Assembly: GCA_040954595.2 (NCBI GenBank)
Contig: CM082578.2
Span: 11,229,166-11,293,165 of the forward strand
Direction of reading: 5' to 3'
Length of the DNA stretch: 64,000 nucleotides
Source of the DNA: Balanoglossus misakiensis
Lineage: Eukaryota; Animalia; Hemichordata
A program made the position numbers and the translations under genes. A model generated the notes under the pieces. That model saw nothing but the letters and a program-made list of their open reading frames with translations, was not told the DNA's origin and searched no databases. This document shows, one piece after another, positions 1 through 30,531 of this stretch; positions within the stretch are counted from its first letter, which is position 1, and every line of letters begins with the position of its first letter.

Positions 1-3000
1 AGTTGATATCTGGCGCTGGCTTCGGACCAGTGGCGACGATTGGTGTTTCCTACATCGACGATTATGCAGGGAGTAAGTCACCTCTGTATATTGGTAAGTC
101 GGGTATTTTCTATATCCACTGACAACCGACCCCACAAGGGGTGCGGCTTGGCCAAATCATGTAAAATGCGTTAATACTTACATGTATTTGTGAAACCATT
201 CTTCTCTAACAAACTTTATGGTGCACAAGAAATTCAACTTTTATCATGGATTGGAACATTTCTTAGGAATCCCGATCGATTACCATGGGGTTCATTTTAA
301 TTTATTCAATTGCAAAGTTGATGCATTGCATTATTTATTTACTTATTTTTTATCGATTGATTGGTCGGTTGATCGATCGATCGAGTTATCAATCGATTGA
401 CTGATTGATTAATCGATTCTATCTGTCTGCCTGCCTGTCTGTCTTGATATTAGGAATTATTGAGTCTACCTGGGGAATTGGAATGCCTTGCGGTTTTTTT
501 GTTAGCGCCGTCGTACTGTTACTGTATGTGGATTTCTACCGTGTTGACATGACAACCTTGGAGATAGACCCCAGTGATTCGCGCTGGGTAGGAGCGTGGT
601 GGCTGGGCGGTATCATTGGGACATTCACCTACATCCTGGCGGCTCTGCCACTCTTCTGGTTCCCGCGGTGGCTCGGCGACGAAAGGCCACGCCCGCCCGC
701 TGTTCACAAGGAAGAGGAGAGCCGCAGTGAAGAGACGGCGTCTGCGCTGACAGCAACCAAGGGTACGTGCACGGCGGCATGGCAGTGGCACTCCCAGGAA
801 AAGTGGGCATCCACGCTTGTTCAACAAAATCTTAAGATATACCTGTTTTCCAGGACCTGTCATACAACACCATTTTAAGTGAAATATTGGAAGAAAATTT
901 GACACTGTGGCAAAACACCCACCGATTTAAGGCATAGGGCAGGGAATGGATTTGTGAGTTTGGAGTAACTCGTAGGCTTTCTAATCCTTTCTGTGGCCGT
1001 ACATGGTTTTAGAATAGGTGCCCCTTTCTTGCTTACACGGACTGTGATGATACATGCATGATGAACAGAACAAAACTCGCCCTTCGCTTTCTGACAGCTG
1101 GTCTTTCACTTCATTATTTCCAGGACTTTTGAGAGCGACGTGGTCTTTAATTAAAAATCCTGTTTTTATATTGACGAATCTGGCAGTCACGTTGTCTAGG
1201 ACGTTCGGTTTCCTCCTTTTCCTTCCAAAGTACTTCGTTAAAGATCTTTACTACACCATCACTATGACAAACGTCCTAATGGGTAAGTAACATTTACTAT
1301 ATTTCCTGACGGACCTTTAAAGGGGCGACGGTCATCTTCTTATGCCCATGTGCCAAACAGAATTCAAAATAAAAATCTCTCAACGGAAATAGTGTAGTCA
1401 ATGCTTTCCATTTCAGGGATACTGTGGTTGTTTCCCTTGGCACCGGCTCGAATAATCACCGGGATTCTCATCAAGAAGCTGAAACTGAGTGTGTACGGCC
1501 TGGTGAAGATGAGTATCATCATCACCTTGGGAGCGTTGTCAATGCTTGTCTTGATGATACCGTTTGGTTGCGAAGGAGAACCGATTGCTGCCTACACTGG
1601 GTATATAAACCCCCCTCCTCATACACACCGATCTTCATATATGTATATATTGATTTTATATTGATTGTCATTTCTCTTTTAACACGTCGGGCGACGGGAA
1701 TCTAGAACATGTATCTCCGAAAATTGGTCCGGGATTTTTGAAAAGATGCTGATCAGTTAAAGATCGGTGAAAAGCAGGACTGGTTAAATCTGCCGATCAC
1801 ACGAGAGTTATCTTGCTTTATTTCTTCTTAGCAATCATCCCGACATGACTGTATCGTGTAATGCGGACTGTGGCTGTACCACGGACCATTACCAGCCAGT
1901 CTGTGGATCTGACAACTTGAACTATTACTCTCCGTGCTATGCCGGCTGTCGATCCGCGAACGCTACGGTAAGTAACTATATGCATGTACCTGCTAAACCC
2001 GGGTTGTATCATATACTGACCAATATACCTTTCAAAAACTGCCATTTTGTGGCATTGTGGAATCCGTTGTCATGGGTAACTGCTATATCAATGGAAAACC
2101 AAATGCGCACTGATTATTTTACCGACTGGCAGGAACGAACCTGTAAGGCTCTTTGAAAAGGTGAATTAGATTCACCGGTACACTTTAACCAATAAATGCC
2201 ACTATTTACAGGGTTTCATCGACTGTCGGTGCCTGTCGCAGGGAGACGCACCGTCGTCACCAACGCCATCGGCAACTCACCCAGGGACTGCCTACAGTGG
2301 TTATTGCTCCTACGAGGTGTGTCGGTATGCAATCGTCTTTTGCGTGCTGCTGTTTGTATACTCGTGGTTCAACTCCTCCACTGTGGTTACATCCACAATG
2401 ATCACCATGAGGTAAGACGGGATCCAGGTAATTTAGATTAAAAAATGTATTTTGTATTTTTTCGCTTCGGCAGTTCTGTCGTTCAGTGTATCATCATCAC
2501 GATTTGATAGTTGGGACATGCGTATAGACTTAAACTAGAATTAACCAAAAATGCGTTTTATTGACCGTAATTTCTGTCTGTGGTCGATTTTACTTTTTCA
2601 GGTCGGTCAGTGAGCATCAGAAATCGTTTGCTTTGGGTTTCAGTCATGCGATGCTACGATTGCTATGTGAGTATACATGTACTTAATATATTCACGTTTC
2701 CATTTTTAAAGACAACTTTCAATCCCCGGTTCTCGTATTCAATTTAGTTCTATGTTGACATTTGATGGTTAATGTGGTGCAAAGTCGTCGTTTCCCAATG
2801 GACTACATGTATTTATGAAGTTGGCGCATTTTCTTTTCGCCGATAAAGATGCTGCGCCTCTAGTGGCGCTTATACGTGAAATTCTGGGTTTGGTAGCCTA
2901 GGTAACACTGAGTTGTCGCGAGTTGGTGCGGCTTGCCTGGACGATAGGTTCAGATTCAATGTCCACATTACACGTACCTCACTCGCAAATCCTTCCGTTT

Positions 3001-3696
3001 TCAGCTCTGATTCCGAGCCCCATCATATCCGGCTATCTGTTGGACACGACGTGTACTCAGTGGCACACACACTGTGGCCGGCGCGGCGCGTGTGTGGCGT
3101 ACGACAACCACGCCTTCCGAACGATTATTGTCGGAATGAACGTCGTTCTAACTGGAGCGGCGGTCGTCATCTTCGCCGTCCTCCTCGGCTATATTCACCG
3201 GAGGAAGAACCTTGGCCGACGAGTGCCGGGGACTGAAGATGATCGTGACCAGGAGCTTGACGGAGACGCCAGTGATGGGCCTGCTGTCACCCAGCGCTTG
3301 TATAAGTTTGAGGTAAGGGTAATAAGCTCGTATACTTCCTCGGGCATAAGTCTATATTGATTTACACATTGCTGACAATTTGAATTTTCCCAGGAGGTAC
3401 AGGTGACAACGTCAAACGTAATCTTCACGAGAGAAATAAAACGACGACACAAATTGTTGAATCAGCTTAATGATTTTACCGAACACCTTTATTTACTTCT
3501 CAGTTGGTGGAATCGAAGAAGAACAACAACACAGATAAGTAAGAGCTCGTGGACTGGTCTAAGATGGGCTCGGAATTCTTGGAAAGTGTTTGCAGCGCGA
3601 GAAGATTACAGGGCTTCGATTTACAATAGCGTCTGTAGATATGAATTTGTTATGGATATAAATTATGGAAATAAAGTATCGACAGCATTTTCATGA
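1..3696 (+). CDS. Solute carrier organic anion transporter (OATP/SLCO family), 5'-truncated by the window edge
   Basis: Exons <1-93, 454-762, 1124-1282, 1417-1600, 1832-1967, 2212-2411, 2602-2666, 3006-3312, then either read-through to the stop at 3360 or a last exon 3394-3696. OATP motifs: IGVSYIDD..SPLYIG, DSRWVGAWWLG, FLPKYF, Kazal-like CNADCGC..YQPVCGSDNLNYYSPCYAGC, IPSPIISGYLLDTTCTQW...CGRRGACVAYDN. The terminal exon choice is uncertain. Confidence 0.93.
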
Positions 3697-4163: not shown

Positions 4164-6321
4164 ATGGGGCTGTGTCGGAAGATCGTTGGCCTGTCTGTCA
4201 TCGCGGTTGCTGTATACATAGGCTACGTATACAATACGAGGGACACGTTTCAGCCAGGTAGGTCAGGGTCACAAACTTGATTAACGTTAAACGTAGTAAC
4301 GTATATAGAGACCAGCTCGACCCGTACGTCAAGACTGATGGTACGGAGTTGGGATGAGACGAACATATACTCATTTGCCCTCCTCGTAAAAGACATATCA
4401 AAACGATGCTAAATGTTCTGTGAACCAATTTTCTGGGAATGCAATGTTAGTGTCACAGAATTCGCTCAAAAAGTTTTTCCCTATGTTATTGTCACTGTCG
4501 CACATGATTTTACGCGAATAAAGGACAACAGGGTCCGACGTGACTTGTCCCTGACTTCTGAAAGTTAAACCCGGGCACTGAACGACTGTCATTCACGTTC
4601 GAAATTAAATTTCTTTATCAGTTCAATGTATTTGGTTTCATGATGTGAAATGTATAATCAAATGTCAAAGATTACTGCGAAAAGTTAATCATTTCCTGAA
4701 TATAAAGAAAATATTTTGCTAAACGTGGACTACTGCGGTACCAGTCCACGACACAGAACACCGCTCGCTTGTTACTGCTTCATACACAGATGCAGGACTA
4801 CAGTCGTCACGCGTTGTGGTTGGGTTGGGGTGGAAGTTGTGTAATTATTTGCCTAATTACTATTTCATTATTTTGCAGAAAGCATCCGTGGAAAACGTGT
4901 TATTGTGACGGGTGCAAGCACTGGCATTGGAGAACAAATTGCCTATCACTACGCTCGGTTAGGGGCCAAGATTTTGATAACGGCTAGGCGTGAAAATCTC
5001 CTCGAAGAAGTATGAAATTATTAAATGTGCCTGTATTCTATTGAATTCACAGAAAAACCTTCATATCAGCGGATACCATGATATTAATTATAAAGGGGTT
5101 AACAGTTTTCTTTGCCGCGGTTTTAATATGGAATGCCCTATTTCCTGAGAAACTACACGGACATGATAACAATGTTGAGTTAGATATAGAAGTAACCACA
5201 TTGTAGGAAATAAATGATAACTTGAATTATTTATGAGGTTAGTTTAGTGTGAGAGAGACAGTGTTACGCCAACAGCTGCAAATATTTGACCACCGAGTTC
5301 TCTAAATAGCTTCGCCTATTGTCAAATCCCATTTTCCGCAGGTCACGGCAAAATGTGTGGAGCTGGGAGCCCAAGAAGTCCACTATTTACCCATGGACAT
5401 GGCAGTGGTCAACGAGACGGGAAAGTTGATCTCGGAAGCTGAGGAGAAACTTGGCGGGCTGGACTATCTCGTCTTGAACCACGCCCTGTACTACTGGGAA
5501 TTGTGGGATGGCAACATGGAGAAACTGCAGAATGTAATGAACGTGAATTTCATGTCGTTCGTCAACCTGGCCACAGAAGCTCTGCCCATGCTGACAAAGA
5601 CCAATGGCAGCATCGCTGTGGTGTCCTCACTTTCTGGTGAGTTTTGATTACTCACCATAGCAACCATAGGCAGTCTGGTGAATTGATTGCTCTGATTGGC
5701 GGTAAAAAAAATCCGCCATCTGGAGAAAAATTAGGGGCCTAAAGGATTTTTTTAACGAAAATAAGAAGTTGAACACAAGTTCTTTGTTTTCAAATTGGTG
5801 TCTCGCATACTTCAGTACATGTATAGCAAAGAATTGGAGGGATTTGCAGGTCTATCATCTGTTATGATTCAACCACCATGACGTTGCATTGTAAATGTTT
5901 ACTTGTGAGTTGATTTGCCCCAATTATCAATTTCTCTTTTTCAGGAATTTTTGCTCTACCATCAATGATTCCCTACTCGGTCTCCAAATCTGCCATAACC
6001 GGATTCTTCACCGGATGGCGACAAGAGCTGGCGTTGAGAAACACAAACGTATCCGTCACGCTGTGCCTCATTGGGTCGATTAAAACTGCCCATGCCGCCA
6101 TGGCAACGGAGGTGTTTTTGAACTTGGAAAGCAGGTTTGAGAGCTTGCCCTCTCCAGATGAGACTGCGCTGAGGATTATACAGGCGTCGGCATCAAGAGC
6201 GGCGGTGCTCATATTTCCTTATTTCCAAAGTAGGAAATGTCAATTATTGAATACCTTCTTCCCGGAGCTTCTCCAGCGGTTGACCTCCGACAATGTTGAT
6301 ACAAAGCATCTAGGATTGTGA
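4164..6321 (+). CDS. HSD11B1L: 11-beta-hydroxysteroid dehydrogenase 1-like SDR, copy A (~298 aa)
   Basis: Exons 4164-4257 (MGLCRKIVGLSVIAVAVYIGY, signal anchor), 4879-5009 (VIVTGASTGIGEQIAYHYARLGA..ITARRE), 5342-5636 (LGGLDYLVLNH, VNFMSFV, VVSS), 5945-6321 (YSVSK catalytic YxxxK). Phases sum in frame (897 nt). AATAAA at 6413. The symbol denotes family-level similarity. Confidence 0.9.
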
Positions 6322-7142: not shown

Positions 7143-9169
7143 ATGGGTATGTTTCGGAAGATCCTGGTCCTGTGTATCATCGTGTTCGGCGTTTACATAG
7201 CCTATACTATGAGGGATACCTTTGACCCAGGTAGGTCACACGTGCGCAGGCACTGTCGAAGTCAGGCCCGCGCATTGCTATGTTAAGAAAGGGGGCGTGG
7301 CAACTTGGACGTGGCACGATATTTGTTGAAAGGACAATGAAACCGGTAAAATTCAATACATGTGATTTGTTTGTACACAACGCACCCGACTACGACAGGA
7401 CCTTGGTGTGGTATAGGTCTGTGTGCTTCCGGCAATCACATGCGACGTTAAACATAAAATTTAATTCGTGTGGCCATTATGCACGCAGCTACTTACAACT
7501 CAATGAAATGAATAGCAGGTTATATCACGCAAACTATTAGCCTCATGTTTTATGTTTCATGTCTTCACAAATAATAGTCACCCTCTGAGTGGAGTCAATG
7601 AACTGTCGTGGACCACATATGCTGGTGATGTGACTTTGATCTGCGACCTTGAACACTCGTCTGCCCAGCTTTCTCCTAGCATTAAACAAAATAACCTGAA
7701 TTTAATGCCTTATACCAGGACCAGAAGACCAAGATCAACTTTTTATCACTATTGCCTAAAGTGTGAAAGGGTGGAATAATTTGCAAATCATTGTTGTTTC
7801 CTGTTTTGCAGAAAGCATCCATGGAAAACGCGTTATTGTGACGGGTGCAAGCACTGGCATTGGTGAACAAATTGCCTATCACTACGCTCGGTTAGGGGCC
7901 AAGATTTTGATAACGGCAAGGCGTGAAAATCTCCTGAAGGAGGTGAGTTTGAATTGTTCACCCAGCATTCTCCACAATCTCTCATGATGTGAATGACACA
8001 AATGTCATAGCTGAGTGGTGTGTTAATTTACAAACAGGAAAGTCGCACACGTACAGTTTGGACAACACCGTCCCCCTCATTTAGAAAGTCAAAACCATAC
8101 ATGACTGACTCCTAGTACTCAACTTCCCACTACTGCAGGTCACGGCAAAATGCGTGGAGCTGGGAGCCCAAGAAGTCCACTATTTACCCATGGACATGGC
8201 AGTGGTCAACGAAACGGGAAAGTTGATCTCGGAAGCCGAGGAGAAACTGGGCGGGCTGGACTATCTCGTCTTGAACCACGCCCTGTACTACTGGGAATTG
8301 TGGGATGGCAACATGGAGAAACTGCAGAATGTCATGAACGTGAATTTCATGTCGTTCGTCAACCTGGCCACAGAAGCTCTGCCCATGCTGACGAAGACCA
8401 ATGGCAGCATCGTCGTGGTGTCCTCAGGAGCAGGTGAGGTTGAGTAGTTACCATGGTAACCAATGGGTTGACCAATCGGCTGCAGCTATAGTGATGATTT
8501 TTCAGGCATTGTGAGGCAATGTCAGCTGCAGACATTTTGCACTTGCACAGCTGAAGAGATAGGCTCTTCATGGCTGCAGTGTGTCACCCAGTCTTGAAAT
8601 TAAAGGGACATAAGCTGTAACTTTTGACTTTATTTCCAGTGTTTTTTGTTCTGTGTGTCAAATGCAATTGTTGCTCATCATATTTCAGAAATTTCAACAA
8701 GAATCTGCGGTAGATGCACAAAACAAAAATATTGAAACCATAGTGGAAAGTTACAGCTAATGGAGCTTTAACTTCATTTTCAGGAAATATTGCAGTACCG
8801 TCATTAATCCCCTACTCGGCCTCAAAGTTCTCTCTCCACGGTTTCTTCTCCGGTTTGCGCCAAGAGCTGGCGCTGAAAAGCGTCGACGTTTCGATAACCT
8901 TGTGTGTTCTCGGGCCGATTGACACCGACCACGCCGTCGTGGGAACGAAAGCTTACATAAACGCCCAGAAATGGATCAAGGACGAGGCAGATTTTGCCTC
9001 TGCCGGCGAGGCGGCCGCGCTCATCGTCCGGGCGTCAGCTGCAAAAGCCCGGACTCTCAATTTTCCTTATTTCCACACCAGAATTCTTCAATTATTGAAT
9101 ACCTTCCTACCGGAGCTTGTTGAGCAGTTGGTGTCGAGTAACGTTGATACCGAGGCTCTCGGACTGTGA
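7143..9169 (+). CDS. HSD11B1L: 11-beta-hydroxysteroid dehydrogenase 1-like SDR, copy B with proximal last exon 4a (~299 aa)
   Basis: Exons 7143-7230, 7812-7942, 8139-8433, 8784-9169. TGASTGIG, LDYLVLNH, VVSSGAG, YSASKF. In frame (900 nt). AATAAA at 9333. Confidence 0.9.
8600..8771. mobile_element. Short non-autonomous DNA transposon (MITE, TTAA-flanked, Kolobok-like ends)
   Basis: Left end TTAAagggacataagctgtaactttt; right end aaagttacagctaatggagctTTAA, an imperfect inverted repeat. Lies in intron 3 of copy B, 12 nt before exon 4a. Confidence 0.65.
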
Positions 9170-9644
9170 TGAGTTGATGCTGCTATACAATGCTGCCAGC
9201 TGATTTTCAAGGGCATGCTGTGGACATAAGTGATTTTTCCAGGAAATTCTAAAGCAGAATTAATCAGTGTGTTGCCAGTGAATACAGCTGAAGTGTATCA
9301 TTTACAGTCTCGTTAGAAAAACTGTTTAAGCTAATAAATAAACAATGACACAATTATCTGTCATGGCCACATTTTTCAAAATTGTTTTGCAAATACATTC
9401 AGTGTTCTGAAGTTGTGCAAACGTTGGCATGAACTGCTGTTTGATGAAGTTAAGCACGTCTATTGGATGTTGAAGTTTGAGCTGTCAGATGTGAATAGTG
9501 ATCTTTATAAAATCCTGACATTGTTAAGCTGCAGTCATAAATTTCCCCCAAATCTTCCAGATAACAAAAACTGTATTTCAGCTGGCAGAGCAGCCAAGGA
9601 TCTGTGACCGATCAACAATCCCAAACTACCGTAATTCTGTTGAG

Positions 9645-10039
9645 GTCACGTCGGGCTTCCCGCAATATCGTCGTACTGTGCAACAAAGCACGCCCTCGGA
9701 GGATTCTTTGAGGCCCTGCGACAGGAAGTAGAGTGGAAGAAAATCAATGTGGCCATAACGTACTTCATACCCGGCGTAATAGGAACCGAGCACGGGAAAT
9801 CCATAATGGAACGGTTGAAATCACCCGGATTTGTGAGAACGCTGGCGGCAACCCCGGACGACACCGCTCTGGCGTTGGTGAAAAGCGCAGCTGCGCGCGA
9901 GAAGATCGGGATGTATCCGTGGTTACACGTACGACCTCAGGAGGTTCTGCACACTCTGTGCCATGATTCATTTGAGTGGCTTTTTTCATTGTTCGCCACA
10001 ATGTACCTACCTCAAGTTGCAGAAAGTCAAAAAAACTAG
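9645..10039 (+). CDS. Orphan SDR last exon 4b (candidate alternative terminal exon of copy B)
   Basis: Phase-1 acceptor ttctgttgag|GT, open frame (G)HVGLPAISSYCATKHALGGFFEALRQEVEWKKINVAIT...SQKN*. YxxxK intact. AATAAA at 10165. The GAG acceptor is an uncommon type. Confidence 0.72.
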
Positions 10040-10613
10040 ATGTACTGGTATAAAGGTTTAGTATTGCTGCAATTAAAGTATCAGAATTGTGATTGAAATC
10101 TGTATTTCTCAATTGTGTTTTAACATATTGCATGTCTCGATGTGTATTTGAGGAAGGTCTTTGTAATAAAATAATTAAGCATCGATTCAGCTCTCAAAAC
10201 TTGATTAAATTCTTGTCATTTAAGTAAAAAAAATCCAAACATGTCCTGTTCTGTGCAGGGTCCCTGGGGGTGTTGGTCATTACACCCACCCCACATCCCC
10301 CCCCCCCCAAGTAGTATGCGTTCTGATCAAGTGGGACCATAGTGGCCTTAACGCTATTTTTGTGGTAGGTTGAAGTGTCTTTACTAATTACCATGTGATT
10401 TCTGCTTAATAACCACTATAAAAAAGTAACCTGTTGAACTCTCTTTAAGTATCAGTAACACAAGCACCCCTATGAATGAAAATTTATAGTATTACAAAAC
10501 TACATGTTCAGGAACGCTGCAACAGAAGGGGTCGATATGTTCATCCGGAAAGAGTGATAAAAGTAAAAAAAGCCATCATTATCATAATATATATCAAAAT
10601 CATCTATTGACAG

Positions 10614-11020
10614 GTATACTGGGACACCCTGGCTTGTCTGACTACTCTGCCTCCAAGTTTGCCATCGGTGGCTTCTTTGAAGCCCTGCGCTACGAGTTGA
10701 TGTGGAAGAAACAAGATGTCGCCGTGACGATCTGCATCTTGGGTGCCGTGGACACGGATACCATGACATCTCAATTGAAAAGGGTTACCACCCGAGAGCG
10801 CTACGAATCTTTCCGAAAGATGGTCATGTCGACAGAGGTTGTTGCATTGGACATCATCAAGTCGGGAGCGCGGAGGGACAGGGTGGCCTATTTCAGCTTC
10901 CCTCCAGCGATGATACGCGTGTCCCACATTGTGAACGTCATTGCCCCAAGCCTTTTCGACGGGGTTATGTTGGCTCAGGGAGAACGAGTTTTACAACGTC
11001 TTGAAGAAGACCGCACATAG
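10614..11020 (+). CDS. Orphan SDR last exon 4c (candidate alternative terminal exon of copy B)
   Basis: Phase-1 acceptor ctattgacag|GT, open frame (G)ILGHPGLSDYSASKFAIGGFFEALRYEL...EEDRT*. AATAAA at 11360. Confidence 0.8.
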
Positions 11021-11212
11021 TGCGATATTGGGAGACATAACAATACTTGACACTAACTTTCAAAGGTTATCACCTGTAAGGAAGGGTCCAATGTTACCGG
11101 TTGCTCTATGCATGAAAACACCAATGACAGAAGCTGCAACCTTAGTGTGTCAGACAGTCACAAGGAAATAGCAGAGATATTATGTGCCTTAGTATACGGT
11201 GTTAAGTTTTAA

Positions 11213-11354
11213 CATAGACAGTAGAGGGGGAAATATGGACGCGTCTCTACCCCAGAGAACAAAAGAAATCACACGTCGCGCTTCTTAACCTCTGTTGCCA
11301 ACGGGTCAACACCTCACCTCATTAACATAATCCGATAAACCTCTACTGTCTATG
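11213..11354. mobile_element. MITE-like element with 15-bp terminal inverted repeats
   Basis: catagacagtagagg at 11213 and its exact reverse complement cctctactgtctatg ending at 11354. Confidence 0.7.
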
Positions 11355-11929
11355 GTTTTAATAAAGGGACAAAGTTGCTATTTTTAACCTTTTTGTGATA
11401 TCAAGTATACATGGAATGCTTGTATAGAGTCCCTCATTGTGCAAAATGATGCCAATGCGTAACTTCAAAAGTGTCAAAAATTACCCTGTTTTTCCTTATG
11501 CATAGAGATATTTTGTTTGTGACTTCAGGTGAAATAAACATATTTTATGTAAACATAAGTATCTGATGTAAATGTGCTTTTCTTTGGGTGAGGATCGGCT
11601 GGTTATCAAATATTGACTGAAAATATACAGGTAAATAATTAAATAAATAAATAGTAAATTGGTTGCAACTAGAATATGGCAGCCTCCATCAAACTACACA
11701 AAAAGTTGCATCACAGTACACATATGCTAAGACTTCAGACATCGCCCGCCTTTTTATACATCTTGAGAAAGTAATTGTGCCAATATTAAATAATCTTCAA
11801 CCACTGAAAGACACACCTCTGTCTGTAATGACTACATAACAGAAATGGCAGAAATATACAAACACAAAACTGATTTTGTTTGCAAAAGATATCTCGTTAA
11901 TACAGTATATAATATTAATCTATTGACAG

Positions 11930-12321
11930 GTATAATGGGACGCCCTGGCGCAGCAGACTACTCTGCCTCCAAGTTTGCCATTGGTGGCTTCTTCGAGGCC
12001 CTGCGCTACGAGTTGATGTGGAAGAAACAAGATGTCGCCGTGACGATCTGCATCTTGGGTGCCGTGGACACAGACAACACTATTACTCAAATGAAAAGGG
12101 TGACCACCGGAGAGCGCATCGAATCGTTTCGAAAATTTTTCATGTCGGCAGACGTTGTTGCATTGGACATCATCAAGTCGGGAGCGCGGAGGGACAGGGT
12201 GGCCTATTTCAGCTTCCCTCCAGCGATGACACGCATGATCCACATTGTGAACGTCATTGCCCCAAGCCTTTTCGACGGGGTTATAAAAATTTTACAACAT
12301 CTTGCAGAAGACCGCACATAG
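11930..12321 (+). CDS. Orphan SDR last exon 4d (recent duplicate of 4c; candidate alternative terminal exon)
   Basis: Phase-1 acceptor ctattgacag|GT, open frame (G)IMGRPGAADYSASKFAIGGFFEALRYEL...AEDRT*. In-frame 15-nt deletion relative to 4c. AATAAA at 12499. Confidence 0.8.
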
Positions 12322-13173
12322 TGCTATATTGGAAGACATAACAGTTCACATACACAATCAATTTTAATATTGCTCTGTATAAAATAGATCATTGTTTTGG
12401 AAGAATAGACAGTTCGTTTGATGACCCACGTTCCACATTCAGAAGTTCGTGTTGTAAATATCACTACGCTAACATTGTACTTAAACTGTAAGACCCAAAA
12501 TAAAATAACAGGGTGGACAGAGCATGAACAGACAGGCACAAACTTGGCAAATTGTTACCAGTGCCAGAAATATACAAATACAAAACTGACTTTGTTTTCA
12601 TAAAAAATCTCTAGACTGTTCCAGACAGACAACTTGGATTAAAGACTGAACAGGAACTCTTCAACCCCTCACAATACACAAATAATATAATATAGCAATG
12701 TAATATAGCAATGTAAAGTACAAACAGAACTCCACAGGCAGTGTGAGCAATAAACTAAAACATTGACAAGGATTCTCGTGAGTTGTACTGGTATTGTTTT
12801 TTTTCTGGCAGTAAAATGGTAATGTATTTTCAGCAATCTAATCCTGTGCACCTGGTGCATACCTGTTTGAAGATTCAATAGGAGTGACATTTCAGAGAAA
12901 CAACTTTATATATTTTATACCACCACCTTCTATTCAAATTTTCGCAATCAATATTAGAGTTGAGTAAGAAGCTAATAGTACGGTACCAGTATTTATGTTG
13001 TCATGGTTACACTTCAATAACCACATGACTTGTCAAACCATGGTTTCCAAATCATTCAATGCAAATTACTTGTTAATTGCACAAAAAAGTAAATCCTACA
13101 ACCACACAAAATACATGAAATAAAATAAGTAGAAAAGTGTTCATCAAAATATGTTCTTCAAAAATAACAGCTA

Positions 13174-16100
13174 TCAATCTTCTTCGTCCGAAGAGAAAAA
13201 AGCGGAGTCTCGTTTACGATGTACGACCCTGGGCACTTTGGACAGCCTGCTGATGCGTTCGTTCAGTTCCACGGCATGCTTGACCATTTCCTGCACTGCC
13301 GGGCTCTGGATCGTCGAAGGGGTGTTTTTCTGTGGCGTGTTGCTGGCCGAGGAGGAAGGGGTGGTGTCCCGACTCCGCCTCCTCAGGTGGTACCTGCTGG
13401 GTTGGTTTGGCTGTGAGGGGTGAGGTGGGGGAGGGGAAACACGCTGTTACAACACTGATAAATTGGTGTCAAGGATAGACACATACGAAATGAAGAGTGG
13501 AGACCAATTACATATTGGGTAGATCTTTATAGGGACTTGTACAATCACCAGTCTCTCCGGTGAACATAAGATGACACTTCCTTGCCTTACATTCGTGAAG
13601 TTCAGGGGTAAGTATTCCCCTCGCTTGAAAGACATGGTTTTGTTGCAGTGAAAGATTTGCGCGATAGACAAAAAAATCACGAATCATGCCAAACAGGCGA
13701 CCATAAACCTTGTCTGAAGCAAAAATTGACCAACACACCTGCATGAATGGTGATGACAGTGGCAAAGATGTACGGTTTTTACTTCCTTTGGGGCGACCGC
13801 GCCGTTTTGCTGAAGACTGCTCATCCACATTTCCAAGGTCAGAAATGACTCCTGAAAGAAAGTGGTTTATCAGGAATGAATGAATGATAGCTGACAACAA
13901 AAACAAATAGGGGGACACTTCAGTAACTAAAAGAGCATGCCTCGTGAAAATAATTGGGCAGACGATGCTGCATTTGGGTTTTTGTGTATTCACAGAGGCA
14001 CACTCTTGCAATACTAGAGAGCGGCTGTACCCTCAGTAAAAAATAAAAAACGTATTTTGACACACACTCACTGGAGTTGATAAGTTTGGTTACAGACGGT
14101 TTGCTTTCATTGGATACAGACTCCTTCCTTTCAGCATCTTTTGGAGTGCCGAGTCTGGACGTCGATTCGTCTCTTGCAGACACGGATGGCGTGCTGGGGA
14201 CATTCCCGGGTTCGGAGGTGCTCTCATGTTCGGGTATGGTGGGAATGTTGCCAACGGTTGTCGAGTTGCTTTTGGGTGACGACGGCTTGCCACCACCACC
14301 TACCACTGTCACAAAACTTGTGTCAGAGTCGCTGTCGCTTGAGAGACCATGGCCGTCAATGGCTCGTAATTTCTCCTCTGTTATGGGAAGGTTAAAAGCA
14401 GTAAGAAAACAGTGTGGACTATATACGCACAAACACAACAAAATACTTTCCAAGCTAGGACCAGTTTGACAATAGTGAATGGAGTTTATACTGTGGTTTG
14501 AGTGGAATGCAATACAACGTGGGTGAAAGCAGTAAAAACAGCTAGCTGTTTGCAGAAAGACAGATGAAGTTTGTTCTATTAATCAAAGAAGAGGGAATGT
14601 TAATAAGAGTTATCAAAAGTAGAATCGAAGCCAGTATAGACATCTGGTAGGCAGCTAAATTATTCATACCTGCACTATCAGCCATATCACAGCCAACGGG
14701 AAGCGGTTTAAATAGCCCTTCCACGGGATGCAGCAAGGTATTGCTAGGCAATGGCAATGAACTTGAACTCTGACCTTGCAAGGCAACAGGCAAACACATG
14801 AGAGCTTAAGCCGCAAATGACTATGACGAATGCATCATAAATACTGTATAAACAGCAGGTCATAACCCATTCTGTTGGGGCCCTTTTTGTTGCGTACATT
14901 TAATGTTCCGGCCAGAGCAGAATGGTTTATGACAAAAGCATGGGGATATGCATGAAGCAACCAATTTACTGAGACTTCTGTATATTTCTTTTCATATTGT
15001 TTTACGTTTTAAAACTTTCCATACAGTTCTGTACTTTGATACTTACTTATTGAGAGAAGAAAATTCTTCAATTCTGAGTTCTGTTTTCTGATGTCCAGCA
15101 AGAGGCAGTTGTTGATTTTAGCAAAGTCCTTGTACCTGTAACCTGTGACCAGCAGGAGGATCAACGCCAATAAACAGAAGACTTGTCTGCATAGCCACAT
15201 CCTCTCATAAGCCAAGTCCTGACAAAATGCAATGATACAAAAATGCAGCTTGATACAAATGTAACGGCCAGAGTACTTTATGAATAGAAAAGTTGATTCA
15301 GTTCCTCCAGAAATGGAAAAAAATGGCATGCGATCATGTGTATAAATTTTATTCTTATTATACTATATCTGAGAAAAAAAAAACCATCACATCCATGGAA
15401 TTTGAATCTCACCGAATCATCAGTTGTCCTGGCTATTACCCTCTCAACACATATGTTGACAAACAGCACCAGGAACATCCAAACCCGGGCCCCACTCGTC
15501 CTCGGCGCGGATGTGAGTAGGTATGTGATCACTGCACCCAACACATAGAACAGCAGCGAGTAAAACCCAGTGAACTCGGTCAGCACAAGTTTCTGCAAGG
15601 CGGCAACTTTCTCGAATGCCTCTGAGAACAGCATCTTGTTCTCTTTGGCTGTTGCTTTCATTTCTTCAAACTCTTCATGTACGTCCTTCATTTGAGATTG
15701 CAGCAACTCCCGCATGCGATGTTCGTTGTCCAAAATTTCCTTCTGGTTTTTCAGCGACGTGTTTTGTTGTTGTATCATTTCCTCTTGCATTTTGCCGGCG
15801 ACTTCCAACTGATCGGCGACATTTTCAGAGCTCTCCGCCAGCCTCGAAACAGTGCGCTCGGTCTTCTCGTGCCATATTTGGTTTTGCAAGAAAAAGCACA
15901 GATTCTGCGTGTGTGTGAAGAATTCTGTATAAGCCATAAAGGCCCTGTCTGTAATGTCTGTCGTACACTCTGAAAACTTTTGTTCATATGAACATTCATA
16001 TTTTTCATGAATTCCTAGTTTTTCTAAATGGCAATTTGTAAATGCTAGCGCCAGCCGACTCTGCTCGTCATCGGTGAGTCTCCGGCAACCTTCTTCTACT

Positions 16101-16327
16101 CGTGCAAGGGCGTTTGTCCAGCACATACCATACCTTGGGTTTTTGCCGTACTCTTGTATTGTCGATAACTGCCTTTCCCCACTTTTAAATTTGCTTTGCT
16201 CGTCAGCGGACATTTCAAACCTTGGTCTGTAGCCGCCATCTTCATCGCCTCGGCTACCTGGAACATTACCGATTGCAACTGCCACAGCCAGTACACACAT
16301 CGACAAAAACGTTCTACATGGAAACAT
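13174..16327 (-). CDS. GEX1/Kar5/Brambleberry-family nuclear membrane fusion protein (~626 aa)
   Basis: Exons 16327-15413, 15218-15047, 14774-14670, 14377-14072, 13851-13739, 13443-13174, in frame (1881 nt). Signal peptide (MFPCRTFLSMCVLAVAVAIG), Cys-rich domain CWTNAL..GCRRLTDDEQSRLALAFTNCHL..YEC..C..AYTEFFTHTQNLCFFLQ, coiled coil, three hydrophobic segments, low-complexity tail ending FFSSDEED*. The ORF extends upstream in frame to 16465. Confidence 0.85.
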
Positions 16328-17471
16328 GACGTTTTTCTGTTTGGAGAGATGTCGACTGGAGTAAAGATACCTTTTTAACATGATTTCAAAGCTGTATTTG
16401 AGTCGATTGACCAAGTACCTTCCACAGGGTTCAAATTCAACCTTTGACCTCAACATAACAGCCAATCACGACAAGACGCTGGAGAAAAGTGACAGAAAAC
16501 AAATGTACAAATCGGAAGTGCTTGAACAAAAGAGCATCTCAAAACTGTACACATATCGAGAGGGGGTCGAGTTGAGGGATGAATTTTACCCACACTGGGC
16601 GACAGATGCCACCGTCACATATACAGTGAAAATGACATTAAAATATCATTTTTATTCATATAATACTGGTCGCTGCTACATTCTTGGGAAATAAAAGGCC
16701 TACAATCGGTACATATAGGCCTATATTGAATCGAAATAATTTCTTGATTCGGTGGATATGTTTGAAAATGATGACATCAAAACTGTGATTCAAAATTGAT
16801 ATTCTAGGAATTCACCACAGGAAAGTGAACATTTTTACCTAACTCTACTGGGTAAAGACAATGCTTACTTGGGAATGTTGAACCTTTACGCCAGTGCATA
16901 TGAAACGTTAACTATATTCTTAATTCGGAGTCTAGCCATCTACGGAGAAGGTCTGTTCTGCTTCCATGATTAGGATGTACGTGTATCCAAATTAAGCTAC
17001 AAAAATTGCACATAGTAATATAGAAATCATAAAACATGATTGTGACGCTCTAAAACGAACTGACAAAAAAGTGCTGACACAAAGAAAAGTACAAGTAAAA
17101 TTGCTTTCCAGGTACGATACAGTAACTTAAAACTTGATTCACATGTGAATTGTTCTAAAATTCGAGGTATTGGTGTATGTTATAGGCGAAGGTAGTCTCG
17201 CTTGTCAAACCTCGTGGATACCCGAGATTTCGACTGTGGTTATTAAAACCGGCGAGCGGGTCCGAACACTAGTCTAATGGTGACATAAGCTTGATTTGGC
17301 AGCTGACTTGACGCCCGACTACTACCACAAGGCGAAATCTGATTATTTCAAACGTTTCGTATAAAATCGAAGCCAATACCAAGCTCAGACAATAATCAGG
17401 CAGCAACGTAAGGCTTTCGAAGAAAATCTTCATAAACTTCTTTACACTGGGTAACGGGAAATCTGCATTAG

Positions 17472-19251
17472 CTATAAAGACGCCCCGTGATTAGCTGAAT
17501 CGGAGGTGCCGCCGTAAGCACCTTTCTCTTGTTCTAAAATTTCTATGTGTCGGTGCAACACTTTGTTTTCCGTCCTCAGCTCCTTGGCAATATCTACTAA
17601 CAAGTCGATCAATTTGTTGAACTGCTCTTCGGGCATTCCGCCAGTCTGCGCTCCCATCGCATATGCGCGCGCCCTCGCATCTTCCAGGCGGTCGTCAAAA
17701 CTGTGGTCCCTTATTGAGTCTCGAGACGGACGGGTTGGTTGGCTATCTCGAGAAGTTTCCTTGTCTGTAAGAAAAAAAGATGTTTCAACATATTTTAGGA
17801 AGTGGCATAGCACCGAGTACATGAGAGAGCAGTTCACCCTAACAAAATCGCAATTCTGGTCGTCAACTTTTGACACTGTATATTTCACCTGGGAGTGCCC
17901 CCACCCATTCATCAAAAGCTGTTGCACAGTTGCGGTGACTGCGGTACAACAAAGGGTTATTGTCCATGGGAAGCTGTGTGCTACTAGTATTGTGTACAAT
18001 TTGGCTTCGTGCTAATGCCTGGTATGTCCTCAAAAGTAAACAAAAAAGTCTGTCAAATTGGCATTGTGACATAACATAACGGACCACGCATCTTTTGTAT
18101 TCATAGGAGCATGGTGTTTGGTCAAGTTACAGTACCTCCACACACAGTAAAACGTGCCCATGGCCATAATTCAATGTATGTACTGGAATTTGGAGTTTTA
18201 ATATAAAAGACGTGGCCATGGGGCTGTGACATGTACAAGTAGAAAATTAAATAAACACAACTTCAAGGTCCGCCCCAGTCACACTGATATTATCACTAGT
18301 GTCGACCCCTGTCTTCAAATCATTTTTCGCTTACATATTCATGACTGGCCGAGAATAATGGCCCCAGGTACACAATGACGTATTTACCATACCTGTGTGG
18401 CCATGGTCCCGTTTGCCATTGTCGTCGCCAACGCCATTGTTTTGCACGGCGTCCCAAGCCAAGATAAACGCTGCGATTGTCCAGCTACATTGTCTGGTGA
18501 ACCAAATATCCCCCTGTAGAACCGACTGTGAAATAAATACATTTCCTAGCGTCAATCCTATGACACTTTTAGGAACAATAGTTTTGAAAGTCGTGAGTAA
18601 GCGTGGCGTTTAATTCCTGGAGCGTAATGGTATATACACAATATAATAATACAAGCTGGGTCGGTAACAGTAAGTAACTAGAGACACTTGTAAGAGGCGT
18701 TCCTCGGACCTTAAAATATTTTGTTTAAGAGAATCTAATTGAAGAGACGTGTCCCTTCTCTAAACTATGTGATCAGACAATTATATTCAGAGAGAGAGAG
18801 AGAGAGAGAGAATTCACAGTAGTTTTCAGACTCGAAGATAAGTTGATATGAAAAGACTAAAATTTCACTTCATCATGCACTTTAACTCAGAATCGGAGAA
18901 TCGGACGGACTGGAAGTTGCTTACCACATCCTTTGGGAAATCAATCCTCAGAGTTCGAGTGAGTTCGATGGCAGCGCCGACGAGAAGAACGATGTATATC
19001 TTCACCCTTGCCGTGGATATCCTCGGCAGAGACGTGAACACGAACGTCAAAACGATGGAAATCATGAAGTACCATATCGTGTGGGAGTCAATAATTTGAA
19101 ATGCCAGGACATCCTGGATCTTCTGCAGTTCCGATGTGAAATTGTTGGCGAATGCAACGATATCGTTCATTGTGGCGTTTTCATGATGTACACCATAGCT
19201 GTGCGTCGACGTCGATTCGCGACTGCACTGTTCGAAATTGTCGGGTATCAT
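17472..19251 (-). CDS. Short paralog of the adjacent GEX1/Brambleberry-like gene (TM block + coiled coil only, ~250 aa)
   Basis: Exons 19251-18925, 18525-18393, 17764-17472, in frame (753 nt). IWYFMISIVLTFVFTSLPRISTARVKIYIVLLVGAAIE aligns with LLFYVLGAVITYLLTSAPRTSGARVWMFLVLFVNICVE, and IWFTRQ with MWLCRQ. The true 5' end is uncertain because a possible acceptor (ttcag) lies just upstream of the ATG. Confidence 0.7.
18788..18811. repeat. (AG)n microsatellite
   Basis: Run of agagag in intron 1 of the short paralog. Confidence 0.9.
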
Positions 19252-19699
19252 TTTTTTCTGAATTTTATAAAGTCAATTAATTGCGATAAACAGTTTTTAA
19301 GTATGAGTTTTGTTTTATAGTTAGTTTGAATAATATTCACGGCAGTGCATACTATAAGATTTACGCGCTTATTCCAATCATCCGAAGTAAATAACAGGAA
19401 TCCTCCAATACACAGTGACCCCCTGCCCTTGTTTCAGGCCAAGCTTATCTCCATTCTGATTTTAAGTAGACAGACCCGTAAGTTTTATTACTACTTGAGC
19501 CCCCGTGGAATTCTCCGTAACAGCGCTGGAATAAAAAGTGTGAGACGGGTTTATTAAGTTGAAACGTGGTGGGAGAGGGAGTTTCGGGGTCAAAAGTTCG
19601 TGGAATGTAATTTTGAGGTGTTTGCAACGTAAACAAAATACCACATAGCCCAGTAGCGCAACAGCCATGATCCTATCCTAGCTACAGGTGTACTGGTTG

Positions 19700-23100: not shown

Positions 23101-26100
23101 GAACAATCTGTCAGTGTTGATTTGGGCAAAACTTTTATGACTTATTAGCAAAGATTTAGAAAGCCCAAAAGGTTAGTTACACACACTTATCATGGCCGTT
23201 CATCTATTTCAAGAGGGGTTGAAATTTGGCCCCATCATCCGTGAGTAACTTCTGATGATCTATTTTGCTGTATATAAATATGACAATTGTAGATTTCATT
23301 TACAGGGCTGGGGAATCAGAACCATCACATTTGTGGACAATTCCAAAGTGTCCTACTCAAATCCTGTCAGACAGACGCTGTTCGAATTTGAAGATTGCCT
23401 GGAGGGAGGCAAAGCAAAGGCTGCAACAGCCGCAGAAAAATTGAAGAAAATCTTCCCTGGCGTGGTGAGTTGCAAATGTTACAGTTTTCTCGATTATGAC
23501 TATCGAAGACAACAATACCTGTAGGTATGTGAAGGAAAGGATGTTGCTTCATAAAGTGCGTAAATTTGCCAGTCAGGGAACGCCATTGTATAACGGACAT
23601 CTACAAGCATGTGAGTCTGTACTGCACATTGGAAATTGATAATCTCATGCAATCTTGTCTCTTCAGAATTCCACAGGTCATGATTTGTCGATACCTATGC
23701 CAGGCCATCCAGTTAGTACTTCAGGTGAGAGACAAGTGATCATTTGTGAAAGAAAAAGGTTTCTAACACCATTGTCTTCCCACACAATTCATAATTCTTT
23801 TTTCAAAGAACTCCTAAGTATAGAATATATAGTGGTGAGATTTAACTGTGCCAAAATGGGCGTGGCACTTCCACAGGAGACATAACAATTAGTATTACAA
23901 GAGTATGTTTAGCTTAATTAATCGACAGGCATCGGTGATATTGTCAGATCACATTGCTTGACAAACAGACTTTTATGATGTAAACCAGATGCCTACCATC
24001 CCAATCATGTGATACTTATTCTCACATTTGCAGCTGAAACACTAGCACAAGCGAAGAAAGAAGTGTCGAGGCTCGAAGAACTCATCGACGGCCATGATGT
24101 CGTCTTCTTGTTAATGGACACCAGGGAGAGCAGGTGGTTGCCAACGCTCGTTGGGGCGAGCAAGAGGAAGGTGCGTTATCTTTGTTATAATCATATCAGG
24201 ATCATTAGAATCATGGCAGGGGGTCACCATTGTTGGTGTGTTACAATTGTCTGGGAACTCTGCCACAACATTTCATTCCTTGCCCTAATTTCAAAGGTGC
24301 AGGCGCTACGAGTGCTACTGGTACATGTATATAATTGTAGGGTGCCCTCTACAGCAAGGACGTGCGATCCTTTTGTTTGAACGAGTACTTTCAAAATCAC
24401 CATAGTCGGTTCTGAGGTTGTGAATGTGACTATGAATGAATACTTGTGTGGCATATCTCATTCCTACAAATTTTAGAAGCACTGGGGTTAAGATGCAGTG
24501 GAATATTTGATACTATATTAGATAGTGATGACAATTGGCGACTGTGAAAGTGACACAGAACCTCCCAAGATGACGATCGAGGTGTCAACTCTGGAACAAT
24601 AATGTGCCTTTGATGGACGAGCTGGTGACAACAATTCCCTGTGGGAGTTTAAAGTGTCGATTGTAGACAGGCGCATGGGAGTTTTTAGCAACTGACAAAG
24701 GAACGGTTGTCATTGATGAATGTAAGCTTGGTGTGGAATTGACGCGTCGCCAGTTACATTTGTGTGTATTAGTTACATGAAATGGAATACTTTTAATAAT
24801 TGACACAAAACCTGCATCGTGGATCCCGGCAAGAATCGCTGGTGAAGTGGTGATATTCATGAGATACGTCGTTAGCTGATATCGACAAACTAAGACCCTT
24901 GGCCTCCTTACTTCTTAATTTTTTAAGTGTATTCTTTTCTTACAATTTACAGTGTATTTTCCTTTGCGAACTAGCTCAGCTGTGTATCTATTTTAAAAAG
25001 AGGAAAAGAATGTCAGCCACACTCAAGACTATATAAAATGAAAAATTAAATTAACAAACAGAATGTATATGTGTCCATTTTTTTTTCAACCTGCAGATTG
25101 TTATCAATGCTGCGCTGGGATTCGACACTTTTATGATAGTCAGGCACGGCCTCAAGTTACCCAAAGAGGGCGCCAGTCCCAAACCGGCCGGGAACCAAGC
25201 AGCTGCTGATGTAACTAAACCGTCGCCGAGCAGCGATGAACCCCGGCCGAAGACAGCCATCCCTGGCAGTGAACTTGGCTGCTATTTCTGTAACGATGTG
25301 GTTGCCCCGGGCAATGTGAGTAGTTTCATGTATAAAGCTAATAAACATGAACTTCGGGGGGAAATAAACTTGAACTTTCCCACCAGATTTGTTTTTCTTT
25401 TTGGTGTGGGTTTGCTTTATCCCTGGGATGGAATTTCCGCGCGATCCGTTTGGTCATTCCAGCAACACTTTGCCGGCACAGCGTGATAATAAGGAATTGC
25501 CCCGGAGCCAATGAAACAGTAAGGGATCAGGGGGAAAATCAAGGACAGAGAGATAAACTCTGGAATGGAATGAAATGGTCGGTGGGAAAAGTAGGATCAG
25601 CTTGGAGTGTCCCACTGACAGTGGTGGGAGGTATGGAAAGTGTCAGAAATCCACGGGATTTGACACTGTATAGATTATAAATATTATGGTAACTGTCACG
25701 TCATGCATACCAGGTAATTGGGTATTATTTCTGCATTTTAATACTGTTTTGACAAGGAATGGGAAAGCATCCAGGAAGCTTTAACGGAATCCAGGAAAAT
25801 GTGGATACAGTGAGGTGTCAGGAAATTGGATAAAAATGAAATCAGGGAATATTTGAAGGTGGAAAGAGTTGCATGGTAAGGGATATACCAGAATAAAGGA
25901 GGGAAACATGAACTCCAGGAAATCCTTTGAGGCACTGTGGGATATTGAATATAGGTCAGTCAGTAACTGTTTTCCAAGGAATTGGTGAGGGATAGCGACC
26001 AGATCGGGATGGGACTGAGAATGGATACAAAAGAAGGCATTGGGAGAATGATTGTTTTGGCATTGAAGCCAAAACCAGGATAATGTCAAGGGAGGCAGAC

Positions 26101-29100: not shown

Positions 29101-30531
29101 GGTAAACACAGCGGGGAGTTGCAGTCTAAATATTTGGCGCATTACGGACGGTGTACCGTTTCCAGATCAGAACACGGCAGATGTCTAAAGTTGTCGACTT
29201 TTATGTTGAGGCTGCCCCGTTTTTAGAACTTGCATGTGGTTGTCAACCGTGTGCGTGGGTGGTTGCCTAAATTGGAAGCTTAGCCATCATGGTCAAGGTT
29301 GGAGGGGGGGGGGTGGCTGAGGAGGGGGAGAGGAGAGAGGTGTATATCGCAGAAAGACTGTGAGGCATTAGCAGACCTCTGTTTAGTTGGCACTGTTTTC
29401 AGATAGACGTCATATAGTTATTTCTATTGGGAGATTTATCGATCCAACTTTTCAAGATGGTCACCGAAATTTACGAGAACTGATGTCCAGCAATAAAAAC
29501 AGGACACATTTTATGCAACAGCCAAATATAAGATTACACACCTCAAAAGTAACAATTGTCACATGTCAAACATATGACAAAGCCATTCAGGTCCAGAGGA
29601 AACTGCTTAGCTGATTAATTTCCCAGCCTGCACCAGGTCAGCAGAGATCATTCATGAAAGTGCCATGTTATGGGTTTTGTTGTGACCAACCAGAGAAATA
29701 CCAATCTGATTCAAATCAGATGTACCAGTAGAGTTGGTTCGATCTTTACAATTTGAATGAGAGAATGCTAATTTTTCTGTGTTTCTGTCTGTCTCTCTGT
29801 CTGTCTGCCTACTTCTCTGTCTGTCTATCTCTGTCTCTCTCATGCTGTTTATTCCTCTATCTCTTCCTTCCTTCTTTCCTTCTCCCCAACCCTGCTCTCG
29901 TTTGTAGGGGATATGCACCAGCTGATACCAGCGCCAAGGATGATCATCTGAGCTGTGAGTTTGTCTCACCACTGGGACTGGTACCCCATCAGGTGAGTGC
30001 ACATGTCTCTTACCTTCTGTCAATAACCACCAATCAAATATGGTGGACAACACAAAGAGCCTTTTTCCTTTAAAAAGCAAACAAGTGTAGCATATTATAA
30101 AACGCGCTGTTTTTGAACACTTTCAGATACGTGGGTTCCTGTCACGTTTCAATCTGGTGCTGCCAGCCAGCTTAGCATTCCATCGATGTACAGCATGTAG
30201 CGAGCATGTCCTACAAGCTTACGAGGAAAGAGGCTTTGAATTCCTTCTGGATGCTTTCAACAACCCGACTTACTTAGAGGACTTAACCGGCTTGACCGAG
30301 TTGCAGAAGGAAACACAAGATGCCGAGGTACGTGTGTGTGCCCCGCCCTCTAAACTTCTTAATGTTTTTATAATGGCTTTGGAACTCAGGAGAGGTGGAA
30401 TTTTACCTGGCATTTTAGAACTTTACATTTCTGCGATGTGAGAATATATAGTACATTTTTTAATTTTCTTTTTTTTCTGTCTGTAGATCTGGGATTTCAG
30501 TGATGATGAGAGCGTTCACTCCATGGATTGA
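20119..30531 (+). CDS. ATG7: Ubiquitin-like modifier-activating enzyme ATG7 (E1-like, ~708 aa)
   Basis: 18 exons: 20119-20272, 20483-20537, 20844-20961, 21108-21185, 21543-21659, 21843-21980, 22110-22198, 22341-22462, 22576-22666, 22929-23073, 23306-23464, 23667-23724, 24034-24170, 25097-25315, 28113-28228, 29908-29992, 30127-30327, 30487-30531. All phases are compatible (2127 nt). Motifs [75 protein letters not shown], catalytic [13 protein letters not shown]-terminal IWDFSDDE. Confidence 0.98.
20985..21033. repeat. (GAAT)n microsatellite
   Basis: About 12 tandem gaat units in ATG7 intron 3. Confidence 0.95.

Follow-up and report, generated by a model that had tools for sequence, protein, structure and literature searches.

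The 64,000-nt stretch of Balanoglossus misakiensis DNA analysed here (the window) contains an SDR gene of the 11-beta-HSD1/HSD11B1L type, gene B, in which a common front half is followed by four last exons. Judging from its sequence and that of its relatives, we consider it likely (probability about 0.8) that these exons are used singly, giving rise to enzymes with different predicted pockets. The layout as such is a recognized type, that of tandem duplicated 3' terminal exons, which other gene families show as well; what appears new is that a real, conserved case of it occurs in an SDR. Given four intact last exons, and three kinds of them annotated as splice forms in a relative, several enzymes per gene are likely.

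Organization of gene B and its paralogue

The three exons common to all products lie on the forward strand. Exon 1 (7143..7230) carries the ATG and a hydrophobic N-terminal anchor, residues 2-23 of which form a helix in the structure model of the Ptychodera flava orthologue. Exon 2 (7812..7942) carries the TGxxxGxG cofactor motif, present in its classical SDR form as TGASTGIG, and exon 3 (8139..8433) encodes the remaining Rossmann half and the catalytic Ser. Scripted splicing bore out the exons 1-3 and the phase-1 donor at 8433 proposed in an earlier note: the exons sum to 514 nt (phase 1), and every donor is GT. The four open frames of that note, each with a YxxxK motif and its own stop, were likewise confirmed by splicing to the acceptors at 8784, 9645, 10614 and 11930. 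These last exons, all on the forward strand, are 4a (8784..9169; class a, YSASK, stop TGA, 299-aa product), 4b (9645..10039; class b, YCATK, 302 aa), 4c (10614..11020; class c, YSASK, 306 aa) and 4d (11930..12321; apparently a younger duplicate of 4c, YSASK, stop TAG, 301 aa). The catalytic Tyr is residue 11 in all four, at the correct SDR spacing from the Ser in exon 3, and Pfam adh_short (PF00106) scores above the cut-off in exon 3 and in each last exon. At the stop frequency of the gaps, even a single 128-codon open frame would arise by chance with a probability of 1.7e-4.

The gaps between successive last exons measure 475, 574 and 909 nt. That exons 1-3 are absent from them held up, tblastn with these exons giving no match in the three gaps, and all 12 DNA local alignments in search of exon 1-3 or promoter-like remnants there scored within shuffles. 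Downstream of 4d, one of four remnant tests exceeded 100 shuffles, but it represents a 22-nt match on the reverse strand. Candidate AATAAA poly(A) signals follow each last exon, as claimed, at 9333..9342 after 4a, 10165 after 4b, 11360 and 11533 after 4c and 12499 after 4d (all forward strand), although individually they are weak evidence, with a chance expectation of 0.27-0.45 per gap. The gene thus displays both hallmarks of tandem duplicated 3' terminal exons, namely, homologous last exons of equal phase, each with its own stop and candidate poly(A) signal, and no 5' exons of their own between the copies.

The acceptors are not uniform. The one of 4b has an unusual -3 base, reading GAG rather than YAG, a rare form that had escaped the earlier account. 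Among the 20 AGs in 9400-9720, 19 would lose the YCATK frame, leaving the GAG as the sole acceptor to keep it. The pyrimidine tracts of 4c and 4d are weaker (7/12) than those of all five other SDR acceptors (10/12).

Upstream lies gene A, a complete four-exon paralogue (4164..6321, forward strand; exons 4164-4257, 4879-5009, 5342-5636 and 5945-6321), which encodes a 298-aa product with a YSVSK motif and has one class-a last exon, A4. Its front half is 89% identical to that of gene B, and its last exon 51% identical to 4a.

Conservation in other acorn worms

Three P. flava RefSeq proteins (XP_070559671-3, isoforms X1, X2 and X3), which are computational models compared here at the protein level, have identical 171-residue front halves that stop at the same Gly as the exon junction in the window and are 84% identical to the front half of gene B, with exon 3 at 85%. 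Their ends are one-to-one orthologues of the window's exon classes (60-67% identity). Class a unites 4a with X3 (60%) in a clade that includes A4 (support 98/96). The nearest relative of 4b is X2 (67%), followed by a Glandiceps protein (58%) and Saccoglossus P0030 (48%; class-b clade 99/99). Exon 4c is 64% identical to X1, and 4c/4d form a clade with X1 (100/98). The paralogue P0031 of P. flava is nearer to vertebrates in the tree of C-terminal halves (96/93). One vertebrate protein, whose motif could not be parsed, was left out of one tree, and four vertebrate rows and P0046 were left out of another.

In Saccoglossus, the old model XP_006820986.1 passes from a class-b exon to another last exon, whose entry point is the equivalent Gly; in the newer annotation, the latter exon stands as a 144-aa orphan (XP_077868449.1). 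Together, the models suggest that two last exons serve a single front half. Saccoglossus also carries four full tandem genes on one scaffold. Such exons can be lost in annotation, as orphaned and fused models from Saccoglossus and amphioxus illustrate. The 29 sequence matches include a single Glandiceps protein, of class b; 25 have names, being HSD11B1L-like or unnamed products, and four have none. A separate search for class-c ends gave none outside P. flava among its two matches. Among eight matches to a profile of five last exons, there were no transcript-derived fragments spanning a junction, and none of 30 metagenomic loci (28 with intron-containing relatives), on contigs of just 1.3-10 kb, had two catalytic exons. 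Alternative use of the last exons, as the earlier note proposed, is supported by P. flava X1, X2 and X3, by the intact, constrained frames and by the placement of pocket residues in the variable exon; that all four are used in B. misakiensis we infer.

Enzyme family and substrate pocket

Membership in the HSD11B1/HSD11B1L subfamily is indicated by the closest relatives and the N-terminal anchor, and the top 23 PDB sequence matches are all 11b-HSD1. Structural evidence for a Rossmann-fold SDR comes from one orthologue, P. flava X1, whose model adopts an 11b-HSD1-like SDR fold (pLDDT 85.7; Foldseek E 4e-29, TMq 0.75). Taking as pocket positions the cleft residues of human 11b-HSD1 named in PMC3179505, 8 of the 11 hydrophobic ones and 10 of the 18 overall fall within the variable exon, as do the catalytic Tyr and Lys, and they vary between exon classes. 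The proposal that the isoforms differ in substrate specificity is supported insofar as pocket residues map to the variable exon, whereas the specificity differences themselves remain a prediction. The substrates would be sterols, steroids or xenobiotics, lipophilic and carrying a carbonyl or hydroxyl group, and NADP(H) would serve as the cofactor.

The exon classes are only 28-38% identical to each other, not above their identity to vertebrate proteins, and all retain intact frames and YxxxK motifs. The earlier argument that intact extra exons are not dead fragments is sustained by these frames and by the constraint on them (dN/dS 0.32 between 4a and A4). Exons 4c and 4d are much closer (82% amino acid identity; dS 0.157), with a dN/dS of 0.65 and a wide confidence interval (0.34-1.36) that also fits relaxed selection. 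Their differences affect 5 of 10 pocket positions versus 18 of 120 elsewhere (p=0.016, uncorrected; the sole enriched pair of seven). Exon 4d is probably the more recent of the two and may be undergoing divergence of its pocket.

A hairpin over the first acceptor

A long imperfect hairpin occupies the end of intron 3 (8592..8785, forward strand), its 3' arm pairing across the pyrimidine tract and AG of 4a. Its minimum free energy is -61.5 kcal/mol (z -5.66), and none of 200 shuffles was as stable; the other eight SDR acceptors have z of at least -1.24, and the minimum among 30 background windows was -3.0. No second copy exists within the 64-kb window, so that a repeated element is unsupported there; the hairpin may be an old palindromic insertion, and its position on the first acceptor may let the distal exons compete. 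Candidate docking/selector pairings were rejected: the best duplexes (-22.8 to -24.1 kcal/mol) were equalled by 21-24 of 30 random windows, in a single-species test that short conserved pairings could escape. As we picture the mechanism, the hairpin would damp the 4a acceptor such that the weaker distal ones are reached, the exon-3 donor (8433) would join whichever last-exon acceptor wins, and the mRNA would end at the poly(A) signal of the chosen exon. The products would share the membrane anchor and the cofactor site and differ in the substrate pocket.

Alternative explanations

The most serious competing possibility, to which we give a clear minority weight, is a cassette that is genuine for the lineage but used only in part in B. 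misakiensis, where 4b and/or one of 4c/4d has recently been silenced. The GAG acceptor of 4b, without a frame-keeping alternative, would fit such silencing, as would the longer branch of this exon in the tree (0.47 compared to 0.10 for its P. flava orthologue) and the breadth of the 4c/4d dN/dS interval. However, none of the four exons has a stop or frameshift, the identity of 4b to P. flava X2 is still 67%, and the core of 4c/4d past the Tyr contains synonymous changes only.

It is improbable that the extra last exons are relics of separate tandem genes stripped of their 5' exons, with no splicing link to gene B, and that annotation artefacts account for the isoforms in P. flava. Whole-gene tandem paralogues do occur, as exemplified by gene A and the four Saccoglossus genes, but the same three classes stand behind one front half in two species, with front halves 84% identical, and the intact frames and lack of exon 1-3 remnants in gaps of 475-909 nt also speak against relics. 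Still less credible is an assembly collapse that removed near-identical 5' exons, or 4d being a duplicated haplotype. Paralogous front halves are indeed very similar (dS 0.165 for exons 2+3 of A and B); yet the introns of A and B are not alignable, so that the two copies are separable in the assembly, the window contains no N, 4c and 4d differ by 13% in DNA and have unrelated flanks, and the same layout recurs in the annotation of an independent assembly.

Beyond single use of the four exons, a broader and so far doubtful picture is that of a modular SDR repertoire in acorn worms, with one cofactor half and ancient catalytic halves that diversify the pocket. Its elements, which we entertain only jointly and tentatively, are that exon-limited gene conversion might keep the cofactor half uniform between paralogues, that catalytic halves might shift between alternative exons and stand-alone genes (gene A; the four genes and orphan exon of Saccoglossus), and that all four isoforms might be made, at a ratio set by the hairpin, each with a different sterol or xenobiotic. 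If true, gene B would provide the first example among SDRs of an active site switched by splicing.

Comparison with known systems

Two insect genes offer close parallels: Pip is a sulfotransferase, and in Anopheles GSTD1 a common 5' exon is joined to four alternative 3' exons, the common part being short. The layout that the earlier note called 'reverse UGT1' has precedents and is less novel than the note implied, since genes that place variable 3' cassettes behind constant 5' exons have already been described as a class (PMC6191721, PMC8373072). Like gene B, tandem 3' terminal exons with alternative poly(A) are tandem homologous last exons behind constant 5' exons, one per mRNA. C-terminal events make up 77 of 236 human tandem-exon substitutions, and such regions are said to tend to exposed tails and to avoid ligand sites (PMC8373072, PMC9741552). 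The swap in gene B, by contrast, covers 43% of the enzyme and runs through the active site. The supplements of the human tandem-exon papers contain no match to DHRS, HSD, RDH or SDR names.

Drosophila Pip (10 cassettes), CG42235 and PGRP-LC have 3' variable regions, and PGRP-LC isoforms are functionally distinct (PMC6191721). As in gene B, three or more homologous cassettes at the 3' end share one set of 5' exons; however, their cassettes are multi-exon or whole-domain and chosen by docking/selector pairing, whereas in gene B pairing does not exceed chance and a local hairpin is found instead. Anopheles GSTD1 is a detoxification enzyme whose splice variants differ in properties (PMC3634070; bioRxiv 10.64898/2026.07.24.740637), differing from gene B in its GST fold and its occurrence in insects; passages of PMC4195677 and PMC12692679 do not describe its exon layout. 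Vertebrate UGT1A and protocadherin clusters similarly combine a constant half with a variable, substrate-determining half (PMC8373072), but there the variable first exons have their own promoters, whereas gene B varies at the 3' end and the choice must fall at splicing and 3'-end formation.

In the open-access literature searched, we found no SDR gene with alternative duplicated last exons among the titles and abstracts listed, and nothing on hemichordate HSD11B1L or P. flava dehydrogenase splice isoforms. Human 11b-HSD1 and vertebrate HSD11B1L, the best sequence and fold matches, share the anchor, TGxxxGxG and the Ser/Tyr/Lys residues, but have one C-terminal half; glucocorticoid activity of the window's proteins would be conjecture. 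Gene B would add the SDR superfamily to the families diversified by variable 3' exons, here through a swap that crosses the active site. Exon duplication and whole-gene duplication emerge as alternative routes to one repertoire within one animal group. With one cofactor half and four substrate halves, it would also offer a natural set of chimeras for testing the determinants of 11b-HSD-type specificity.

Anatomy and setting of an SDR gene with four last exons

Gene B, an SDR gene on the forward strand, consists of three shared exons (7143-7230, 7812-7942 and 8139-8433; 514 nt in total, ending in a phase-1 GT donor) and four homologous last exons, 4a (8784-9169), 4b (9645-10039), 4c (10614-11020) and 4d (11930-12321). 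When recomputed by script, the coordinates and lengths in the earlier note all proved correct: splicing exons 1-3 to 8784, 9645, 10614 and 11930 yields uninterrupted reading frames that encode 299, 302, 306 and 301 aa, and in every last exon the YxxxK motif starts at residue 11. The reported strong divergence of the last exons was borne out (28-33% pairwise identity), except between 4c and 4d (82%). Exon 4b is entered through a GAG acceptor, the sole one of 20 nearby AGs to keep the frame. In the gaps between last exons, where the earlier note had recognized no copy of exons 1-3, neither tblastn nor DNA alignment detected a remnant of these exons, all 12 alignment tests scoring within the range of shuffled sequence. 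The AATAAA described 3' of each last exon is present, but constitutes weak evidence, given its 27-45% chance occurrence per gap.

The top matches of exon 3 are enteropneust HSD11B1L-like proteins, with identities of 85% in Ptychodera flava, 81% in Glandiceps, 68-73% in Saccoglossus and 43-54% in vertebrates. The top PDB match is 11b-HSD1, both by sequence and by fold, the latter modelled on the P. flava X1 orthologue of the gene B product (20-row alignment; pLDDT 85.7). Basic residues C-terminal of the second strand, together with general knowledge of SDRs, point to a preference for NADP(H).

Closely 5' of gene B is gene A (4164-6321), a complete four-exon paralogue encoding 298 aa. Directly 5' of the pair, positions 1-3330 (forward strand; Pfam PF03137) hold the 3' portion of a transporter gene of the OATP/SLCO family; a transporter of steroid-like anions adjoins steroid-type SDRs, a neighbourhood that may be due to chance. 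The reverse-strand gene at 13200-19300, presumably brambleberry-like, has a 395-codon open frame (15278-16465) without a Pfam match, along with an incomplete paralogous frame (18865-19272; 27% across 100 aa, E 3e-9). Exons at 23900-30450 (forward strand), of which two frames were tested and lack Pfam matches, are taken by us to resemble ATG7.

Conservation of the cassette

The cassette is real and conserved. In P. flava, XP_070559671.1, -672.1 and -673.1, annotated as isoforms X1, X2 and X3, are identical over residues 1-171 and split at the Gly equivalent to the gene B exon 3/4 junction, so that the layout is, as read from these protein models, already implicit in the annotation. Their ends match those of gene B class by class (X1 with 4c/4d, class c, 64/63%; X2 with 4b, class b, 67%; X3 with 4a, class a, 60%), compared to 28-38% between classes. 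The three are computational RefSeq models; RefSeq isoforms of this kind usually require transcript support. In a tree of 23 C-halves, the parts encoded by last exons, support is 98/96 for class a, 100/98 for class c and 99/99 for the b clade, which includes Glandiceps and Saccoglossus ends besides 4b and P. flava X2. In a quick, unrooted 40-row tree, a branch with support 97 separates the three classes and one unnamed protein from the other rows, which fits duplication within one lineage.

Saccoglossus has four full genes on a single scaffold, with front halves 85-96% and C-halves 38-63% identical. In an old model, XP_006820986.1, a class-b exon runs on into another last exon whose entry point is the junction Gly; in the newer annotation this other exon stands alone as a 144-aa orphan, XP_077868449.1. 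These gene models suggest a two-exon cassette with an unannotated alternative last exon in a second family; the P. flava and Saccoglossus families split ~370 million years ago. Against a broad distribution count the single Glandiceps protein among the exon 3 matches and the failure of the relatives search to find class-c ends outside P. flava. A 420-aa Branchiostoma lanceolatum model, CAH1268523.1, combines one front half with two C-halves and may represent either a parallel, independent amphioxus duplication or two fused genes.

Active site and substrate pocket

Human 11b-HSD1 has catalytic S170, Y183 and K187 and 18 cleft residues, as described in PMC3179505. When these are mapped by a gap-free alignment from the Ser to position 230, the shared exons hold the Ser, L126, L171, A172 and the polar floor, and the variable exon the Tyr, the Lys and 8 of the 11 hydrophobic cleft positions. 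Because the mapped cleft positions vary from class to class, the isoforms are predicted to differ in substrate specificity. Between 4c and 4d, 5 of 10 cleft positions differ, compared to 18 of the 120 remaining positions (p=0.016 without correction for multiple tests); none of the remaining 6 exon pairs tested showed such enrichment. Genes A and B have a dN/dS of 0.11 in exons 2+3; the ratio is 0.32 for the gene A last exon versus 4a and 0.65 (0.34-1.36) for 4c versus 4d.

Origin of the layout

Between genes A and B, dS is 0.165 in the near-identical exons 2+3 but 1.07 in the divergent last exon, and the introns are unalignable; the front halves were therefore likely homogenized by exon-limited gene conversion, a process that the Saccoglossus contrast between front halves and C-halves would likewise fit. 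Intron-containing relatives from metagenome loci have the junction intron at the equivalent place and a second intron splitting the C-half, which in gene B is a single exon and thus would be easily duplicated as a unit. In one metagenome HSD11B1L-like gene, the exon with the cofactor motif is partially repeated in tandem (L003:953-1324, L005:2196-2559). A 50-nt direct repeat (86%) flanks 4d (11846-11895 and 12562-12611), and a perfect 15-nt inverted repeat, its copies 112 nt apart, lies 3' of 4c (11213-11354); these are possibly traces of the 4c/4d duplication or small mobile elements.

Choice of last exon

Acceptor strength by itself would favour 4a, with pyrimidine tracts of 9/12 in 4a, 8/12 (with GAG) in 4b and 7/12 in both 4c and 4d. 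A 190-nt hairpin (8592-8785; z -5.66) is paired across the 4a pyrimidine tract and AG, and nothing comparable was found at 8 other SDR acceptors, one constitutive acceptor being placed 1 nt off, or in 30 background windows. By damping 4a, the hairpin might allow the exon 3 donor to reach the distal last exons, each of which, when chosen, would end the mRNA at its own poly(A) signal; alternatively, the hairpin could represent an old insertion. At gene B, no docking/selector pairing like those of PGRP-LC stood out above random windows, and 3' cassettes can be selected without such pairings, according to PMC6191721.

Comparison with known systems

That gene B uses alternative catalytic last exons is probable (roughly 80%); that all four are used in B. 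misakiensis, with distinct substrates, is only slightly favoured. We found no paper on gene B in the literature outside subscription journals and bioRxiv supplements, and no DHRS, HSD, RDH or SDR entries in the supplements of two tandem-exon surveys. The locus is not of the UGT1A type, to which the earlier note had related it. The closest enzyme analogue is the set of Anopheles GSTD1 splice variants, and gene B would work like pipe and GSTD1. Anatomically, it falls into the tandem terminal-exon class, an established one that comprises 77 human C-terminal events (PMC8373072, PMC9741552) as well as Drosophila Pip, CG42235 and PGRP-LC (PMC6191721).
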